Shown: positions 11,351-37,048 of the stretch, in pieces
Layout: the number at the start of each line of letters is the position of its first letter
Numbering within the stretch: the stretch's first letter is position 1
Source: Dictyostelium discoideum
Taxonomy: Eukaryota
Direction of reading: 5' to 3'
Length of the DNA: 64,000 nucleotides
Assembly (NCBI GenBank): GCA_000004695.1
Contig: CM000151.3
Location: 6,560,001-6,624,000 of the forward strand
Notes under the pieces: model-generated
What the model was told of the DNA's origin: nothing
The model's input: only the letters and a program-made list of their open reading frames with translations
The model's database searches: none
Made by a program: the position numbers and the translations under genes

Positions 11351-11432
11351 GACATCGTAGCAAAGTGGTCTAATGCGTCTGACTAGAAATCAGATCCCTT
11401 CGGGGGCGCAGGTTCGAACCCTGCCGATGTCG
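11351..11432 (+). tRNA. tRNA-Ser, anticodon AGA.
   Basis: The sequence is GACATCGTAGCAAAGTGGTCTAATGCGTCTGACTAGAAATCAGATCCCTTCGGGGGCGCAGGTTCGAACCCTGCCGATGTCG. The acceptor stem GACATCG/CGATGTC has a G discriminator. The anticodon stem TCTGA/TCAGA flanks a 7-nt loop CTAGAAA, giving anticodon AGA. The long variable arm CCCTTCGGGGGCG is typical of class II Ser tRNAs. The T-arm carries GGTTCGAACC (the B box). The total length is 82 nt. Confidence 0.85.
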
Positions 11433-11699
11433 ATACGTTATAAAAGATTTTTAATTTCCGAAGTTCGGGTCCAGTTTTTAAGCCTATTAATAAATATTAA
11501 ATAAAACTCGTATTAAAAAAAAAAAACGAAAAAAACCGTACCGCGATCAAGAGGATACAAGATACACGTGAAAAGTAATTCATCCTTTTCTATCCTTAAT
11601 CTCGGTCAATTTTAACCAATCTTTCAAAAAAAATCACCAATCCACCACGATCTACAGATCTAACTTACCAAATCGCCGATTCAAAGGAATCCCATCGAG

Positions 11700-12953
11700 A
11701 TGAATTCCTACGCAGACGCGGCTAAAATGGCCAACCCCTCCACCCATATGGACGAGGCATCAGAGAACTTCATTAAGGAATTCTCCACAAAAACAGCAGA
11801 GATAAAGGAGACCTACCCCAAATTATCAATAGGCCTCAAAGACATCTCCAAATACTGCGAGACCATATTGAACATGACTGCGCTCTCAACCTACGAGAAA
11901 AACAACGGATTCTACCCAATTACACTCGAATTCCCCAAAATGGATCTCATGGGGTTAGAAGAAATGAGAAAAACACTCTCAAACTACGATATCCCAATCG
12001 ACAAGATATACATAGGCAAAGGAACTAGAAAAATGATCCACCTGATGATTAAAAACGAACAATCTCTCCTAAATATCATTAGAGATAGAAGCAAATTGGG
12101 AACCTTCATCACCTCCAGTAGAGACTACCACGTCCTCACAGGAAGAGTAAGAATTCCAAGAGAAAAGGCAGGAATAGTGGACGCCCTCATCAAAACTGCC
12201 TTTGCAGAAGAAATGCCCTATGCAATATACCATACTATATACTCCACCGACCACCTCCTAGTATTCGGTCTAATAGAATGCGAAATAGGCGATCAAATGA
12301 AATCTGGCCAACACAATACAGAAATCGCCAACTTTACCATCAGAACGGCCACCAAAACCTACTCCTCACAAAAGAAAAATAAGAAAGTAGAGTCAAACAA
12401 CACGGAAGAACCATTAGAAGATGAGATGACAGATGATCCTCCCAACATCCAAAACAGGATAGCAATCAAATCCTCTCAACCAAAACCACAACAACAAACA
12501 AACAACCCAGCAAACAATAAGTCTGATAAACAATCAACCCAAGAGAAAAAAGCCCAATCAAAAAAGTCCTCTCAACCTCTTCCCCCCAAAAACCAAGCAG
12601 AATCTCAATCTGTCAAACCCACCACAACCACTACCACAACATCCAACGCCATCCAAAAAGACAATGCCAACAAAACGAGCACTAACATCCATTCATCCTC
12701 GGAAAACAGAGAGAAGACACCAAACATCCCTCCATCACATAAACGCAAGAACGAGGAAATCCACTCAAACAACGAGGTCACCCAACTCTCACCAACAATA
12801 AACAGAAGCAACCCTTACATCCCATCCACCCCTAAGACACCTGTCAAAAATGAAAGGAAAGGAATCATTGAGAGCTTCATAGAGAGTATCTACCCTTCAC
12901 CATCCAAACCGCAGCTATACGACTCCCAAGAGGAGATCGATATCATCTCATAA
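11700..12953 (+). CDS. Retrotransposon ORF1 protein (417 aa), with a basic and Thr/Pro/Gln-rich C-terminal half.
   Basis: This is an open frame beginning MNSYADAAKMANPSTHMDEASENFIKEF. The C-terminus, KKNKKVESNNTEEPLEDEMTDDPPNIQNRIAIKSSQPKPQQQTNNPANNKSDKQSTQEKKAQSKK, looks like nucleic-acid-binding low complexity. Codon usage is distinct from host genes, with much higher C content. Confidence 0.7.
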   Translation: MNSYADAAKMANPSTHMDEASENFIKEFSTKTAEIKETYPKLSIGLKDISKYCETILNMTALSTYEKNNGFYPITLEFPKMDLMGLEEMRKTLSNYDIPIDKIYIGKGTRKMIHLMIKNEQSLLNIIRDRSKLGTFITSSRDYHVLTGRVRIPREKAGIVDALIKTAFAEEMPYAIYHTIYSTDHLLVFGLIECEIGDQMKSGQHNTEIANFTIRTATKTYSSQKKNKKVESNNTEEPLEDEMTDDPPNIQNRIAIKSSQPKPQQQTNNPANNKSDKQSTQEKKAQSKKSSQPLPPKNQAESQSVKPTTTTTTTSNAIQKDNANKTSTNIHSSSENREKTPNIPPSHKRKNEEIHSNNEVTQLSPTINRSNPYIPSTPKTPVKNERKGIIESFIESIYPSPSKPQLYDSQEEIDIIS

Positions 12954-15900
12954 TGGTAGTAATCAAAATCAACCAATGGAATGTCAGAGGTTGGGGCACT
13001 GACACCTCCTTCAAAAACAAAACAGACTTTATCAAATCCCAATCCCCCCCAAACTCATTGGCAATAACCATAGTCAATGAACTCAACGCCGACGCAACAC
13101 AAGCACACCAGCTATTTCCTGGCTCCATCATTAGCGCAACCAACAGAGGCAACGGAATAGGAATACTAAACCACAACAACCAAAACATAAAACTCTCACC
13201 AATATTCATAATAGAAGGTAGACTAATAATATCAGACATTCTAATAAAAGATACCACAACGAGAATCTTGGCCATATACGCCCCGGCCCAACCTGATAAA
13301 AGAAAAACACTAGCTTCAACACTAAACAAACACTTCAACAACCAATACCACAACCTAACGTCTAACCCTAAAAAAAACATCGACATCATAGCAGGCGACT
13401 TCAATTGTTTAGACTTCAATGACAATCACACATCAAATGATGACCAAGGCAACTTGACAACACAATCCCCAGATGAGATGGCCACAGTAATCGAAGCCAT
13501 CAGAATTTCAAATAACCTAATGGATATGGACCAACTAAATAAAAGACCCACCTTCTCAAGAACGATACACAACACAAACAATAACCTCACAAGAATCTTG
13601 GAAAGGAGACTAGACAGAATATACCTTAACAATAGCATAATCAACTACAGCCAATTATACTTAAGGAACCTAATCCCCCCAAAAATTAATGACATACCTC
13701 TATCAGATCACAACTTCCTATCAACCACCTTCACTCTACCCAACATACAGATGAACAAGCGCAGATGGAGATTAAAAAAATCCTCAATCCTCTCAAGCAT
13801 AATGCTTAAGAAAATAGACTTCCTACTTAACGATTATTCAAGGGAGCTGTCATCCAACCATAACTCTATTTCCTTCTCTCAACTCAACAGCTTACTAAAC
13901 AAAATAAAACAACTATACACAGAATTTCAAAAACAAAATGACTACAACAATAAGGCAAACATCAAAAATCTAATCTCCCTACTAGAGACAGAATTTAAAG
14001 ACCAAGCCTTCGCAACCCTTTCAGCAATAAATGAATCTAAAAAAAGAGAAGAACAACTTAAACAAGAATTGAACAACTATTGCGAAGAAACCTCACTCAA
14101 GTACATCTCCGCGAGAATCAAGAAAAGACACAATGATTTCACCATCAACGCAGTAAAAGATGCACAAGGTAGAACAATCAACAAACAGGAATTGATCGAA
14201 GAAGAATACGTAAAATATTACTCAAATCTTTATGACTACAAAGAAGATGACCCACCATCTCATTATGAAATGTTGGAAAATTGGACAGTGACCAGGGACT
14301 CAACATGGGACAACCTTGAAAATGAATTCACATCACAAGAGATCCTAGAAGTAATAAAACAATTGAACCCACACAAATCTCCAGGCCCAGATGGAATTCC
14401 AAACTTATTCTACATAACACACAAAGAAAAACTAGCTCCAATACTGGCCTCAGCATTCAACGACACTCTAAGAAATCCTCATCTAATTAGCAAAAATTAC
14501 AAAGAAGGCCTCATTATCACGATACCTAAAAAGGGAGACCCCGAACTAATCAAAAACAGAAGACCAATTACACTGGCTAACTGTATATATAAAATCCACT
14601 CAAAACTAATAAACAATAGAATAATCCCAATACTAACGAAAGTGATCAACCACAATCAAAAAGGTTTCGTACCAGGCAGATTCATTATAGATAATATCAT
14701 ATCAATGAACGAATTAATCAACTATTGTAATGATAAAAGAATTAACGGAATAATTACACTATATGATTTCGAAAAAGCTTTTGACTCGATCTCACACGGT
14801 TCAATACTCAGATCACTACAACACATCAACATTCCAACCAATATAATCAACCTGATAATGAATCTACTCACCAAATCTGAAGCAAGAATTGAAATTAATG
14901 GTAGAACTACTATACCCTTTGAGATCAAAAGAGGAGTTAAACAAGGAGATCCACTATCACCCACCCTGTTCGTCCTTGTAATAGAGGCTTTAGCTAGAAA
15001 AATTTTACAAGATGACCGAATTACTGGCCTTCCTCTAAACAACAGCAACCACAGAGAGAAATTCCAAAGCTTTGCAGACGACTCGGCTTCAATGGTCCCA
15101 GACTCTCAACAACTTGAATTAGTACTACAACACTTCAATTCATTTTGCAAAGCCACTTCCTCAAAACTAAACATCGACAAATCTTCATCAATTCTTATAG
15201 GCAACCCAGACAATACCAACCAAAGAATTCCAATATCTACAAATCCAGAAAGATACTTGGGATACTTCTTCACAGGCAAAGGGATAACAAGAAAAATGCC
15301 AGAAATATTAAACACAATAAGATCATCCTTAGTACTATGGAAAACCACTGACTCAACAATCAAAACCAAAACCAACATCCTCAAAGCATTCGCACTCTCT
15401 AAATTAACCTACTATTCATATGTAGAGAACTTTAAGGAAGAGGAATTAAACCAAATCAATAAATTAGTCGAATGGTTTTTATCGGCACCAAACAACAAAA
15501 ATGCTAGTGGATTTCAAGTTATTAATTTAATGAGAGCCAAAAGAGCAAGATACCCACTAAAAGTAGGAGGCTGGAACATTTGGAATATAGAATTGAGACA
15601 ACTGGCGCAGAAACTTTGGATTATAAACCAGTTCATCCTAGCACTAGAAACCAAACAAACAAACTCATCTCATCACAAAAGCTGGGAATATCAGATCCAA
15701 AAAAACAAATTCACATCCAGATACCTAAAAGAAAACTTAGACGAATGGAACAAAATAAGAATAAAAAAAGCAATCTTCAACAATAATCTCACATCCATAA
15801 AAAACGAAAATGGACAACCACTTTCACTGGCAGAATGGTATACCACAATTCAAGACCAAAATCCAACCATCCCTAAAACGGAATTCCAATCATCTCTAAA

Positions 15901-16657
15901 CTTAAGAGGCTACAGCTATAATCAACTCTTCAACAATATACTGAAGATAAAAGACCCTAAAACAAGAGACACAATGTTTAGATTCCATGCCAGATGCCTT
16001 CCAATAAACTACCTTCACAACAAACAATGCCCACTCTGCAAAGAAGATATGAGCAAAGACCCATACGGTCACCTGTTCTTCTCATGCAAGAAAACAAAAC
16101 AATTCATAAAAATAAATAAACTCAAAAATTTCATCTTTATTACCACAGGCAAAGGTAAAAACTGGCACCATACAAGAATTAGGCAAAATAACAATTTCAT
16201 TAATAGAATAACTCCAAAATTATCACCGACAGCCAAAAAAGATCAAGAAGTGAATGCAGATTACGCCAACCACAGATTCCACAAAGAATACTTTGAATGG
16301 AACTATAAAGCAATAGACTATGATCTAACCAGATCATTCGCATATAGAAACCTAATGGCCCTTATCCTCCACAACATTTGGATTTGGATTTGCAATCAAA
16401 TATACAGTGAAGATCCTTTAACAGATGAATCACTATCATACAGCTCCCTTCTAAAGAAATGGCACAAATTGGCCACTCTAGAATACATCAAAAAAGCAAA
16501 AGATCTGAAAAACTTATCAGCAAAAGACCATAATAACTTCAAAGATCCTAAGATCCTTCTCACTTCAACGATCAAGCTAAGAAAAACAACAGCTAATTAC
16601 TATTGTATTCCAGAATCATCTCTCCCAAATATTATATCTTTTGATCAATTCATATGA
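12953..16657 (+). CDS. Retrotransposon ORF2 polyprotein (1234 aa). It has an apurinic/apyrimidinic endonuclease (APE)-like N-terminus, a reverse transcriptase domain and a C-terminal Cys-rich knuckle.
   Basis: The N-terminus is MVVIKINQWNVRGWGTDTSFKNKTDFIKSQSPPNSLAITIVNELNAD..., which matches the endonuclease/exonuclease/phosphatase fold pattern. The RT motifs are HKSPGPDGIPNLFY, LANCIYKIHSKLINNRI, GVKQGDPLSPTLFVLVIE and the catalytic FADD box QSFADDSASM. The C-terminal Cys-rich knuckle is CPLCKEDMSKDPYGHLFFSC. Confidence 0.85.
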   Translation: MVVIKINQWNVRGWGTDTSFKNKTDFIKSQSPPNSLAITIVNELNADATQAHQLFPGSIISATNRGNGIGILNHNNQNIKLSPIFIIEGRLIISDILIKDTTTRILAIYAPAQPDKRKTLASTLNKHFNNQYHNLTSNPKKNIDIIAGDFNCLDFNDNHTSNDDQGNLTTQSPDEMATVIEAIRISNNLMDMDQLNKRPTFSRTIHNTNNNLTRILERRLDRIYLNNSIINYSQLYLRNLIPPKINDIPLSDHNFLSTTFTLPNIQMNKRRWRLKKSSILSSIMLKKIDFLLNDYSRELSSNHNSISFSQLNSLLNKIKQLYTEFQKQNDYNNKANIKNLISLLETEFKDQAFATLSAINESKKREEQLKQELNNYCEETSLKYISARIKKRHNDFTINAVKDAQGRTINKQELIEEEYVKYYSNLYDYKEDDPPSHYEMLENWTVTRDSTWDNLENEFTSQEILEVIKQLNPHKSPGPDGIPNLFYITHKEKLAPILASAFNDTLRNPHLISKNYKEGLIITIPKKGDPELIKNRRPITLANCIYKIHSKLINNRIIPILTKVINHNQKGFVPGRFIIDNIISMNELINYCNDKRINGIITLYDFEKAFDSISHGSILRSLQHINIPTNIINLIMNLLTKSEARIEINGRTTIPFEIKRGVKQGDPLSPTLFVLVIEALARKILQDDRITGLPLNNSNHREKFQSFADDSASMVPDSQQLELVLQHFNSFCKATSSKLNIDKSSSILIGNPDNTNQRIPISTNPERYLGYFFTGKGITRKMPEILNTIRSSLVLWKTTDSTIKTKTNILKAFALSKLTYYSYVENFKEEELNQINKLVEWFLSAPNNKNASGFQVINLMRAKRARYPLKVGGWNIWNIELRQLAQKLWIINQFILALETKQTNSSHHKSWEYQIQKNKFTSRYLKENLDEWNKIRIKKAIFNNNLTSIKNENGQPLSLAEWYTTIQDQNPTIPKTEFQSSLNLRGYSYNQLFNNILKIKDPKTRDTMFRFHARCLPINYLHNKQCPLCKEDMSKDPYGHLFFSCKKTKQFIKINKLKNFIFITTGKGKNWHHTRIRQNNNFINRITPKLSPTAKKDQEVNADYANHRFHKEYFEWNYKAIDYDLTRSFAYRNLMALILHNIWIWICNQIYSEDPLTDESLSYSSLLKKWHKLATLEYIKKAKDLKNLSAKDHNNFKDPKILLTSTIKLRKTTANYYCIPESSLPNIISFDQFI

Positions 16658-16754
16658 TTAAAATAACCCTTCAGCTTAAATGATAAGCCTTTAAATAAAT
16701 ATTAAATAAAACTCGTATTAACACAGATGGACATATATCAATCTTGTTAATCCA

Positions 16755-16824
<70 letters not shown>

Positions 16825-17115
16825 AAATACTCAAAAAAAAACACCAACTAAGGTATTAGTCTAAAAAAGATAGGTGCCCAGCCCAGTTACAACCATGAAC
16901 CATTTTATCTAAGCAAAAAAAAAAAATAATGTAAAAAAAGTATTTTAAAAAAAGAAGAAAACACGTTAATTAAAAATAAAATGTTATTTAAAAACAAAGG
17001 GTTTTTTAATTAAAATTTATTTAAATATTATTACAGGTTTTTATTTTAACTAAAAAATTATATTTTACAAATAAATAATTAATATTAATATCACTAAAAA
17101 TTTTGAAATTACATT

Positions 17116-19133: not shown

Positions 19134-20494
19134 TTAAAGGAAATATAATTTATCAGATAAATCTTTATCAACATTACGACCAACAGTTCTACCAATTAAA
19201 AATGCCATTTTATGAGCAAATTGACAACTTGCTGGTACACGAACAGATTTTTCAAAATTGAAATAAAGATGACACATTTGGAAAGTAAAGAATTGGAATA
19301 AATCAGCAGCCATTTGATGTTCATCCAATAAGACATGGTAATGAGTTGGATTGATTGAACCTTTGAAAGCAACTTGAGAGACCAAAAAGAAATCGTACCA
19401 ATTTTGATGGGTAATCTTTGAATCGATTAAAGTACCTGGTGGAGGATTTGCTTTTTGATTATCGTTTGTAAAGAAACGAGCGTTTGTATTCTTTTTAACG
19501 ATAGTGTAAACCAATTTTGGTTTAGTACCCCAAGAAGAAGGAGTTTCGGCAAAACCTTTTTTCATTGCGGCAATTTCAGTCTTATTGACGAGATCCAACA
19601 TACCATCACCAACACCATCACGATAAACAATCACCAATTCTGGTAAACAATTGTTATGGTTAAAGTAGCTTTTCATAGCTTCTTTGGTGGCGTCCTCAAG
19701 GGAATGAATAATTTCTTTACCAGGACGTTCTTGAGCGTAAGCACGAGAGAAAAACTTTTGGAATTTATCATCGATGGTTGCAACGAAACCAACCACTGAA
19801 TGACCTTTCATATCTGAATTGTGACCAACATCGACACCAATGACCATGGTTTTCTTTGGTACACCCTTGTAGATATCTTGACCGAGACCCCATGGTGCTA
19901 AACCTAACTTGGCAACCACTTGTTGTTTCAATTTGACAGAGACTGGTCTACCTTTATCAAAGGTTCTAGAAAAGATACATTGAGTTAAAACTCTGAATTG
20001 GATCAATGACTTCATTTTGATACCTTTGTAAACTTCTGCATTATTTTGAGGAATAATAATCAAAAAGAAGCTAACACCTTTTTTGACATATTGTTCCATA
20101 ATATCAGTGTAAATGGTTGATTTAATATCACGGGAACTCTTTGGAAGTACTGGATGATGAATAGTTGGTGGTTGTAATTGACTTTCTCTAAGGAAAAGAT
20201 CAAGATTCTTTTGACACTCACCTCTTTGGAAATCAAGTTGTTCAACAATGAATACCCATTTAACATTTCTCAATGCATTGGCGTTATTAATTGGAACATT
20301 CTTTGGTGCTTGTAATACACAACCTTCAACTTTTAAAGCTGGTTGATAAGAAATACCCCATGATTCCAACTCTTTTGAAATTGTTGGATTTGTATTAAAT
20401 CCATTAACAAAATTATTTAAATTATCAATTCTTTTATATGGTTCAACATTTGATTCTTCTGCTAAATCTTTCATAATATGAAAATCTTTACGCA

Positions 20495-20538
<44 letters not shown>

Positions 20539-22276
20539 TAATATTAATATATTTTTTTTTTAAAAATATGTATTTAAAATATATATTTTAATAAAATTTT
20601 TAAAACTTACTTCATCATTTAAACCAGTTAAATAAGTTAATTCTGGAACTAAATAAATTGTTTGTTTCATACCTCTCATTTTAACTTCAGATTTTAATAA
20701 TGGTTGATTTAAATCGGTGATTTTATATTTTGGATAATTCTTTTGATAATATTGTAAAAAGGTAGTTGAACCTTCCATAATATCGGTAACCTTTGAATTT
20801 TTACCTTGCCATGAAATACCAGAGATACGATAAGTTTTATTATTATAACGAGTTAAAACAATTGAATTTACAATTTCAGCGGTGCATCTATTGGTATTAT
20901 TATTTAAATATCTAATTCTTTCCAATACAGTCTGAGATCTAACAACTTTGGTAGTTGAATCACATAATAACATTGTACCAGCTTCAGTTGGAATAACTGA
21001 TGTACTAAAACCTTTCCAAACTTCTAAAAAGTGTTTTGGTACATCTCTTTTACCAACTGATGTATAATAATTTCTACCCATTAATGAATATCCCATTGAT
21101 CTCATAAACTAATAAAAAAAAATAAATAAAAAAATTTAATAATTAATTATTTATATATTAATATATATTTATAAATTTATATTTATAAAAACCTACAGAT
21201 TTGGTTAAAACATTAAAGAATTGAGTAATTGATTTATCAGTATGATCAAATTCTTTTGCTAATTTAATTAAAATTTGAACTCCATCAACATTTTGAGAAT
21301 TAATTTGAATCTTTTTAGCAGAGAATAATAAAGAATCACCATCATATTTAGTAAAGATTAAAGAATTTGCAGCTAGGAATTCTTTCATAACCTTGAATCT
21401 TCTATCTCTTGCAACTTGTGGTGGATCGTAATCAATACGATAGAGGAATAAACTTCTATTTTGTCTTACTTGAACTGGGAAGAAATTTGTAATAACAGAA
21501 ATTGGTTGACTTTGAATTGATCTTGGTTTTGCTGGGACAATTGCAATATTTTCAATATCATCATCTTTGACTAAATCTTTTCTTGAAATTGTTGGAACCT
21601 GTGCTGCTGCTGGTGAACTTGATGAAGTGGTAGTAGTAGTGGTAGTGGTTGTTTGTTGTTGTTGTTGTTGTTGCTGTTGTTGTTGTGGTTGTTGTTGTGG
21701 TTGAAGATTTTGTGGTGGCTGCTTACCCCAAGAACCACTTGGTTGTTTTGGTTGACCTTGTTGTGGACCTTGTTGTGGGCCCCTTTGTTGTTGTTGACCT
21801 TGTTGTTGACCTTGTTGTGGACCTCTTTGTTGTTGTTGACCTTGTTGTGGGTGACCTTGTTGTGGGTGACCTTGTTGTGGACCTCTTTGTTGTTGTTGTG
21901 GGTGACCTTGTTGTGGACCTCTTTGTTGTTGTTGTGGGTTACCTTGTTGTTGACCTTGTTGTTGTGGACCTCTTTGTTGTTGACCTTGTTGTGGGTGACC
22001 TTGTTGTTGGCCTTGTGGGTGACCTTGTGGGTGACCTTGTTGATGGAAACCTGGTGGTGGACCTCTTGGTTGTTGTTGTTGTTGTTGTTGTTGTGGTTGT
22101 TGTTGTTGTTGTTGTTGTGGTTGTTGTTGTTGTTGGAAACCTGGTGGTGGACCTCTTGGTTGTTGTTGTTGTTGTTGATGTTGTGGTTGTTGTTGGAAAC
22201 CTGGTGGTGGTTTTACGCCTCCTGCTGGATTTGGTTGGTTTGGTTCATCTTGTATGTTTGGTTTTTTAGGACCCAT
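19134..22276 (-). CDS. Argonaute (PAZ + Piwi) protein of about 979 aa in 3 exons: join(21197..22276, 20611..21108, 19134..20495). It has a Q/G/P-rich N-terminal extension carrying RG repeats.
   Basis: The C-terminus carries Piwi motifs: RDGVGDGML, a C-terminal catalytic His, and HVLLDEHQMAADLFQFFTFQMCHLYFNFEKSVRVPASCQFAHKMAFLIGRTVGRNVDKDLSDKLYFL. The middle region is PAZ/MID-like (YRISGISWQ..., QTIYLVPELTYLTGLNDE). The N-terminal 230 aa are repeats of QQQRGPQQG(H/Q)PQQG, encoded by CAA/CCA-rich DNA. Splice junctions are TCT|gtaggt with ttattag, and GAA|gtaagt with aaaag|ATG, both phase 0. The gene could be one of the Dictyostelium agn genes, possibly agnA given the sgcA/gpaB neighbourhood, but I cannot assign the paralog from sequence alone. 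Confidence 0.85.

Positions 22277-36991: not shown

Positions 36992-37048
<57 letters not shown>

Follow-up and report, generated by a model that had tools for sequence, protein, structure and literature searches.

Retrotransposons of the TRE3 type have been on record since the 1990s, as has the fact that they prefer to insert on the 3' side of tRNA genes. A TRE3 element is defined as a non-long terminal repeat (non-LTR) retrotransposon with two open reading frames (ORFs), the order APE endonuclease, reverse transcriptase (RT) and zinc finger (ZF) in ORF2, short untranslated regions (UTRs) and an oligo(A) tail (PMC5006619). Insertion takes place approx. 40-150 bp downstream from tRNA genes and in the same orientation (PMC5911963), and for TRE3-A a distance range of 14-228 bp on the downstream side of the tRNA gene has been published (PMC5911963, PMC5006619). 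The consensus lengths are 5229 bp for TRE3-A, 5279 bp for TRE3-B, 4734 bp for TRE3-C and 1559 bp (partial) for TRE3-D, and the count for AX4 is 67 copies of TRE3-A, including 13 that are intact and full length (PMC5006619). A -1 frame of ORF2 relative to ORF1 has been reported for TRE3-A (PMC5911963). In this study we analysed a stretch of 64,000 nt from Dictyostelium discoideum (the window; all positions are window coordinates unless a locus is named), which contains a full-length retrotransposon with both ORFs open behind a tRNA-Ser(AGA) gene. As judged by its length, its abundance and its ORF layout, the element is most probably a copy of TRE3-A (formerly Tdd-3).

The window element showed the complete TRE3 architecture as defined above, and its body length of 5231 bp agreed with the Dd_TRE3-A consensus of 5229 bp. 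For comparison we used seven other genomic copies, namely two full-length copies and one partial copy in a D. discoideum assembly (L001, L002) and four copies in a D. citrinum assembly (L003-L006). From the motif CCGTACC (at 11536 in the window copy) to the last T of AATATT all eight copies measured 5219-5224 bp, which together with a short 5' A-run gave approx. 5229-5231 bp. The window copy was 98.7-99.5% identical to the D. discoideum copies and 94.7% identical to those of D. citrinum. The latter four were 100% identical to each other over 5223 bp while lying at four different tRNA genes; the family is therefore mobile, and the identity of these sequences indicates a very recent burst of the TRE3-A-type family in the D. 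citrinum genome. The same four copies carried target-site duplications of 10-16 bp and tails of 17-28 nt.

At the protein level ORF2 grouped with sequences from D. discoideum and D. citrinum in a cluster of 79 members, which included many AX4 gene models, among them DDB_G0276387 and DDB_G0281491. Neither the DDB_G identifiers of the AX4 members nor 'TRE3-A ORF2' were found in searchable literature text or supplements, and the protein collection contained no exact match to ORF1 or ORF2. Other D. discoideum TRE-like ORF2 families were only 30-58% identical to the window ORF2, and identity to an element called TRE5-like from its geometry (P0004, L008) was 30%. A search with the 58%-identical P0003 returned no named TRE3-B member. 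Compared with the D. citrinum variant, the ratio of nonsynonymous to synonymous substitution rates (dN/dS) was 0.16 for ORF1 and 0.10 for ORF2; the TRE3-A-type lineage is under strong purifying selection.

An earlier note on this DNA had described two uninterrupted ORFs of 417 and 1234 aa with a 1-nt overlap and complete APE and RT motifs including the FADD box, and all of this was borne out. Both ORFs were open in the window and, at the same locus, also in L011 (GCA_054883475), a D. discoideum assembly that is near-isogenic. At 12951-12955 the ORF1 stop codon TAA and the ORF2 start codon ATG share one A (TAATG, in TCATAATGGTA), so that ORF2 lies in the -1 frame, in agreement with TRE3-A; the overlap was also kept in the D. 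citrinum copies. Gene callers place the ORF2 start at Met176. A Pfam search with ORF1 gave no match, and TRE ORF1 proteins have been reported to lack similarity to other proteins (PMC5006619). For the endonuclease we built an alignment of ORF2 residues 1-277 and seven L1-type endonuclease domains. Across it the catalytic residues N10, E43, Y109, D149, N151, D221, D252 and H253 were invariant, and all were present in the window ORF2. The profile built from this alignment matched the human LINE-1 ORF2p endonuclease (structures 1VYB and 8SXT) at approx. 1e-61. Pfam Exo_endo_phos matched ORF2 only weakly, with 18.3 bits and under the cut-off, yet spanned the full domain, and a phmmer search of PDB with just the endonuclease domain as query gave no relevant match; the matches came with the profile. 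G+C content was 35-42% within the element vs approx. 20% in the surroundings. Two long ORFs in AT-rich DNA, the strong RT match and seven near-identical copies are far beyond chance. The window copy is potentially autonomous and, to judge by its sequence, may be active at present.

Position relative to the tRNA gene was likewise that of TRE3. ARAGORN called tRNA-Ser(AGA) as the only tRNA gene in the window, upstream of the element and in the same orientation, as had been claimed. The distance of 50 bp given earlier was close for the host insertion point, which lies 47 bp 3' of the tRNA gene, and too short for the full-length element, whose body begins at approx. +97 behind a 38-nt partial copy of itself (the mini-copy). 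Five other copies (L002-L006) were also found behind same-strand tRNA genes, for Asp, Ser(TGA), Leu, Arg and Lys, and these independent insertions together with the window copy support the placement among the tRNA-targeted integrators of the TRE3 class. The distance from the tRNA end to CCGTACC was 83-145 nt, except for the Lys copy (L006), which lies farther away because of an extra insert. The copies in L001 formed a head-to-tail TRE-TRE tandem, an arrangement described as typical (PMC5391098). TRE5 elements lie upstream of the tRNA gene in opposite orientation and have modular A/B/C UTRs; the window element lies downstream in the same orientation, and its sole terminal repeat is the mini-copy, which has no counterpart in the other copies.

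Two loci in D. citrinum deserve a separate description. The 30%-identical ORF2 relative mentioned above (L008 4316-9783, GCA_054859325) lies upstream of tRNA-Pro(AGG) in opposite orientation, an arrangement of the TRE5 type; its gene model of 1560 aa probably fuses two ORFs. The extra insert of L006 (1827-2058; GCA_054859145, JBTAPK010000032.1) comprises 232 nt with a poly(A) tail, sits in the 5' end of the full-length TRE3-A-type copy and is bounded by duplicated (A)nCCGTACC. Its core contains tRNA-like A-box and B-box motifs and ends with ...TCTCACCA, and over its last approx. 85 nt it shows 79% identity to the TRE3-A 3'UTR, with A24 behind them. By its sequence the insert looks like a passenger of TRE3-A resembling a short interspersed nuclear element (SINE). 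ARAGORN made no call and Rfam no family assignment for it, and a second copy was not found in the sequences at hand.

To compare the insertion site we used the orthologous loci of two D. discoideum isolates (L009, L010), of L011 and of D. cf. discoideum (L012), all of which kept the tRNA-Ser(AGA) gene. L011 contained the same insertion with identical junctions. The full-length element was absent from the orthologous site in L009, L010 and L012; the insertion is thus polymorphic and lineage-specific, and the presence/absence polymorphism for which the earlier note had suggested looking does exist. In L012 the site was empty. In L009 and L010, read as reverse complement, a 5'-truncated TRE3-like fragment of approx. 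330 bp with an A11 tail was found instead, 3-7 nt after the conserved stretch CCGAAGTTCGG, and its translated C-terminus (...KWHKLAILEYI*KAKDL...ISFDQFI*) belonged to a diverged relative of the window ORF2. Alignment of the four flanks identified 16820-16926 as host DNA and showed that positions 11479 and 16820 were adjacent before the insertion.

One reading considered for the segment 16820-16926, which ends in A12, was that it is what the new insertion had left of an older retroelement, namely its 3' part, after deleting some of it. This was rejected, as three orthologous loci align with it as host flank. The 330-bp fragment of L009 and L010 was likewise rejected as the same remnant and represents a separate, lineage-specific insertion. 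On the evidence of these alignments the same tRNA-Ser gene was struck independently in different lineages, each time within approx. 10 bp of an external B-box-like motif. This motif ends approx. 8 bp before the insertion point of the window element, and the stretch CCGAAGTTCGG in which it lies was conserved behind the orthologous tRNA gene in L009 and L010 and in part in L012. The T5 run behind the tRNA gene likely acts as its RNA polymerase III (Pol III) terminator, and since it sits upstream of the insertion the tRNA gene was left intact.

Some further features of this region were recorded. At 11457-11469 the B-box-like motif forms a small palindrome, TCCGAAGTTCGGG, behind which a T5 run lies, and a generic scan reported it as terminator-like. 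In L009 a (TAATAAATTT)n microsatellite of approx. 36 copies lies between the tRNA gene and the motif. Additionally, upstream of its tRNA gene L009 contains an extra approx. 1.5 kb, in which one sequence of at least 50 nt recurs close to either end (LTR-like).

Table 1. Coordinates of the tRNA gene, the retrotransposon and their flanks in the window.
Feature	Position	Strand	Basis
tRNA-Ser(AGA) gene, integration target	11351..11432	+	ARAGORN
Internal B box of tRNA-Ser(AGA), GGTTCGAACCC	11411..11421	+	Pattern match, 1 mismatch to GGTTCGAATCC
T5 run, likely Pol III terminator of tRNA-Ser(AGA)	11448..11452	+	Read from sequence
External B-box-like motif AGTTCGGGTCC, inside CCGAAGTTCGG	11462..11472	+	8/11 match to B-box consensus
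Mini-copy, 38 nt (11479-11516) with A12 (11515-11526)	11479..11526	+	Matches the element's own 3'UTR, 16684-16721
CG dinucleotide at 5' junction	11527..11528	+	Inferred; not upstream of the A-run in other copies
Full-length TRE3-A-type body, 5231 bp without tail	11529..16759	+	End-to-end alignment with seven other copies
5'UTR, begins (A)7CCGTACCGCGATCAAGAGG	11529..11699	+	5' end common to all copies
ORF1, 417 aa	11700..12953	+	ORF list; no Pfam domain
ORF2, 1234 aa, APE, RT and CCHC	12953..16657	+	Start overlaps ORF1 stop
APE-type endonuclease domain, ORF2 aa 1 to ~255	12953..13717	+	Alignment and profile
RT domain, ORF2 aa 524-771	14522..15265	+	Pfam RVT_1, E=1e-33
FADD box, ORF2 aa 707-710	15071-15082	+	Within RT domain
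CX2CX10HX4C zinc knuckle, ORF2 aa 1026-1045	16028..16087	+	Read from translation
3'UTR, two AATAAA motifs, ends ...TTAATCCAATATT	16658..16759	+	Sequence, copy comparison
Pure A60 run	16760..16819	+	Poly(A) tail
Host intergenic flank, outside the element	16820..16926	+	Orthologous to element-free flanks in L009, L010, L012

The 5' junction of the window copy differed from that of the other copies. TRE3-related DNA begins at 11479/11480, and the sequence common to all copies, (A)nCCGTACCGCGATC, only at approx. 11529. Of the 38 positions of the mini-copy in between, 36 agreed with the element's own 3'UTR (E approx. 5e-12). It was not found at the 5' ends of the seven other copies and was present at the same locus in L011. 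Between its A12 and the A-run of the full-length body lies a CG; these two bases may have been added without a template, or the transcript may truly begin with them. The mini-copy probably stems from a previous TRE3-A insertion that was extremely 5'-truncated and had the A12 as its tail, and a TRE-TRE tandem made by two insertions is the most economical reading of this junction.

We propose that the site 11479/16820 received two TRE3-A-type insertions in tRNA orientation, first the truncated 38-nt copy with A12 and second the full-length copy of 5231 bp, the latter into the A12 tail of the former. By analogy with L1-clade elements the mode would be target-primed reverse transcription (TPRT). 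The ORF1 and ORF2 proteins, of which ORF2 may be expressed in the -1 frame by way of the overlap of stop and start codon (UAAUG), would assemble on the polyadenylated RNA of the element, and this particle would be led to the Pol III-bound tRNA gene, by hypothesis through TFIIIC and a B box, either internal or external, as has been put forward for TRE3 (PMC5911963). The APE would then nick the bottom strand in the T-run complementary to the A12 of the mini-copy. At this place the bottom strand reads T12/AATACG, an L1-type TTTT/AA site. Subsequently the T-rich 3'-OH would prime reverse transcription on the poly(A) tail, and a staggered cut of the top strand would duplicate the A12; its 5' copy would then be 11515-11526, while the 60-nt A-run would conceal the 3' copy. 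Such a duplication would explain why no conventional target-site duplication is seen and why part of the A60 would be target DNA; the A60 run is probably poly(A) tail plus the 3' copy of the A12.

Several points weigh against this account of the locus and are taken together here with the alternatives. Guidance of TRE3 by TFIIIC is a proposal of the literature, in which experimental work on targeting has been restricted to TRE5-A (PMC5006619). Other copies have target-site duplications of 10-16 bp with A as the first base; around 11480 and 11529 we searched for a conventional duplication of the window copy and found none, and the proposed A12 duplication is an interpretation that one sequence cannot prove. 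Additionally, the tail of the mini-copy begins 42 nt upstream of the canonical 3' end, so that an alternative polyadenylation site or a variant source element is needed. The 38-nt 3'UTR piece could also have arrived, together with the A12 and the CG, in a single integration event with the full-length copy. In that case the RT, having reached the 5' end of the full-length RNA, would have switched to another TRE3-A RNA at its poly(A) end and copied 38 nt of it, and the cDNA would then have been linked to the target at 11479. Such a chimera would fit a block (11479-16819) that sits between host sequences appearing contiguous in relatives, with target-site duplications around neither the whole block nor the inner element, and the CG resembles non-templated bases; TREs with extra nucleotides at the 5' junction have been described (PMC5391098). 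We consider this chimera unlikely. The 38-nt piece differs at two positions from the element's own 3'UTR, and its A-run starts 42 nt too early. Furthermore, TRE-TRE tandems by successive insertions at one tRNA gene are the documented norm (PMC5391098), as also seen in L001, and an A12 tail would be an ideal nick site that masks a target-site duplication. We therefore keep the tandem of two insertions, whose order and A12 duplication are proposed here.

With respect to age, the earlier note had called the element probably recently inserted and had argued for its youth from a pure poly(A) tail of approx. 63 nt. The run is indeed pure and is 60 nt long, and as an argument for youth it is weak. 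At the same locus L011 had A32 instead of A60, and the recent D. citrinum copies had tails of only 17-28 nt. Pure A/T homopolymers of 40-53 nt were frequent in the intergenic DNA of the window (at 36994, 41666, 34405, 63258, 33380 and other places), which makes homopolymer length a poor indicator of age here. The recent insertion itself was upheld in part: a relatively recent origin is supported by the presence/absence pattern, the open ORFs and the dN/dS values, and 'very young' was not demonstrated because of the divergence of 0.5-1.2% from the sampled D. discoideum paralogues, among which no identical sibling was present, and because of approx. 23 positions at which this locus differs from the state common to three other lineages.

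The comparison with L011 adds a second doubt. The two assemblies differed by 21 substitutions inside the element, all between 12448 and 15536, and by 0 mismatches in 2.5 kb upstream and 2 in 9.4 kb downstream, a difference rate approx. 24-fold higher inside the element than in the flanks. This excess points to cross-talk in repeat assembly or to gene conversion; as a result the interior of the element and the length of its tail are not certain to the base. An old, immobile copy could be seen here, in which ORFs and clean tail were kept by ectopic gene conversion with active copies or only seem to be kept through repeat-consensus effects of the assembly. The interior-only differences next to near-identical flanks, the tails of 60 vs 32 nt, the locus-specific positions and the abundance of long A/T runs, by which the A-run is no clock, would all agree with this. 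Three other assemblies lack the insertion at the orthologous site, the two assemblies that have it show ORF1 and ORF2 open, the family is under strong purifying selection and identical recent copies exist in D. citrinum, and we regard an old copy as unlikely. It seems quite unlikely that the 21 interior differences reflect real, ongoing ectopic gene conversion among TRE3-A copies and not assembly noise, and that the leader of 38 nt and A12 arose by RT template switching or upstream polyadenylation. Either, if true, would reveal TRE3-A dynamics not yet studied experimentally.

A subfamily other than TRE3-A, for example TRE3-B, is very unlikely: the composite 11480-16759 measures 5280 bp, near the TRE3-B consensus of 5279, and the window element was set against the subfamilies by published length and not by a named TRE3-A/B/C/D reference sequence, which also weighs on the TRE3-A label that we still hold to be most probable, but all eight copies measure approx. 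5229-5231 bp, the 49-nt leader occurs in none of the other seven, the ORF2 cluster of the window element is the most populous one and, in line with reports on TRE3-A, includes several intact copies and many members from AX4, and the other TRE-like ORF2 families of D. discoideum reach no more than 58% identity.

On the 3' side of the element the neighbouring gene is expl3 (AX4 expansin-like protein 3), which extends from 17116 to approx. 18230 on the - strand. Beyond it, at 19134-22276 and also on the - strand, lies an intron-split Argonaute gene with ArgoN and Piwi domains. It is approx. 2.3 kb from the 3' end of the element, a closeness that is probably coincidental.

The window copy is one of the intact TRE3-A copies counted for the D. 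discoideum genome. It represents a known, catalogued element type in a well-studied genome and is a textbook example, not a discovery. Its value lies mainly in annotation, as a clean and probably autonomous TRE3-A example next to expl3 and the Argonaute gene. As TRE3 targeting has not yet been dissected experimentally, it could also serve as the template for a tagged TRE3-A retrotransposition assay. The independent hits on the same tRNA-Ser gene in different isolates illustrate the strong attraction of such sites.

Compared with known systems, the window element differs from TRE3-A (Tdd-3) in nothing of substance; it adds the mini-copy with A12 and has no recognisable target-site duplication beyond the A-run. 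It shares with TRE3-A the length (5231 vs 5229 bp), two ORFs with ORF2 in the -1 frame, the APE-RT-ZF order, short UTRs and the oligo(A) tail, the position on the downstream side of a tRNA gene, in its orientation and within 14-228 bp, and the occurrence in many copies of which several are intact. TRE3-B, TRE3-C and TRE3-D belong to the same class, with the same targeting geometry and domain order, and differ in consensus length (5279, 4734 and partial 1559 bp); the other TRE-like ORF2 families found here were 39-58% identical. TRE5-A (DRE) is a related non-LTR element with two ORFs and APE-RT-ZF that also targets Pol III genes. In contrast to the window element, TRE5 inserts approx. 50 bp upstream in opposite orientation, has modular A/B/C UTRs and an ORF1 protein that binds TFIIIB. 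Human LINE-1 is without tRNA-gene targeting and its ORF1 protein is unrelated, whereas its ORF2p shares with the window element the catalytic residues of the APE, the RT fold, the TPRT mechanism proposed here and nick sites of the TTTT/A type.

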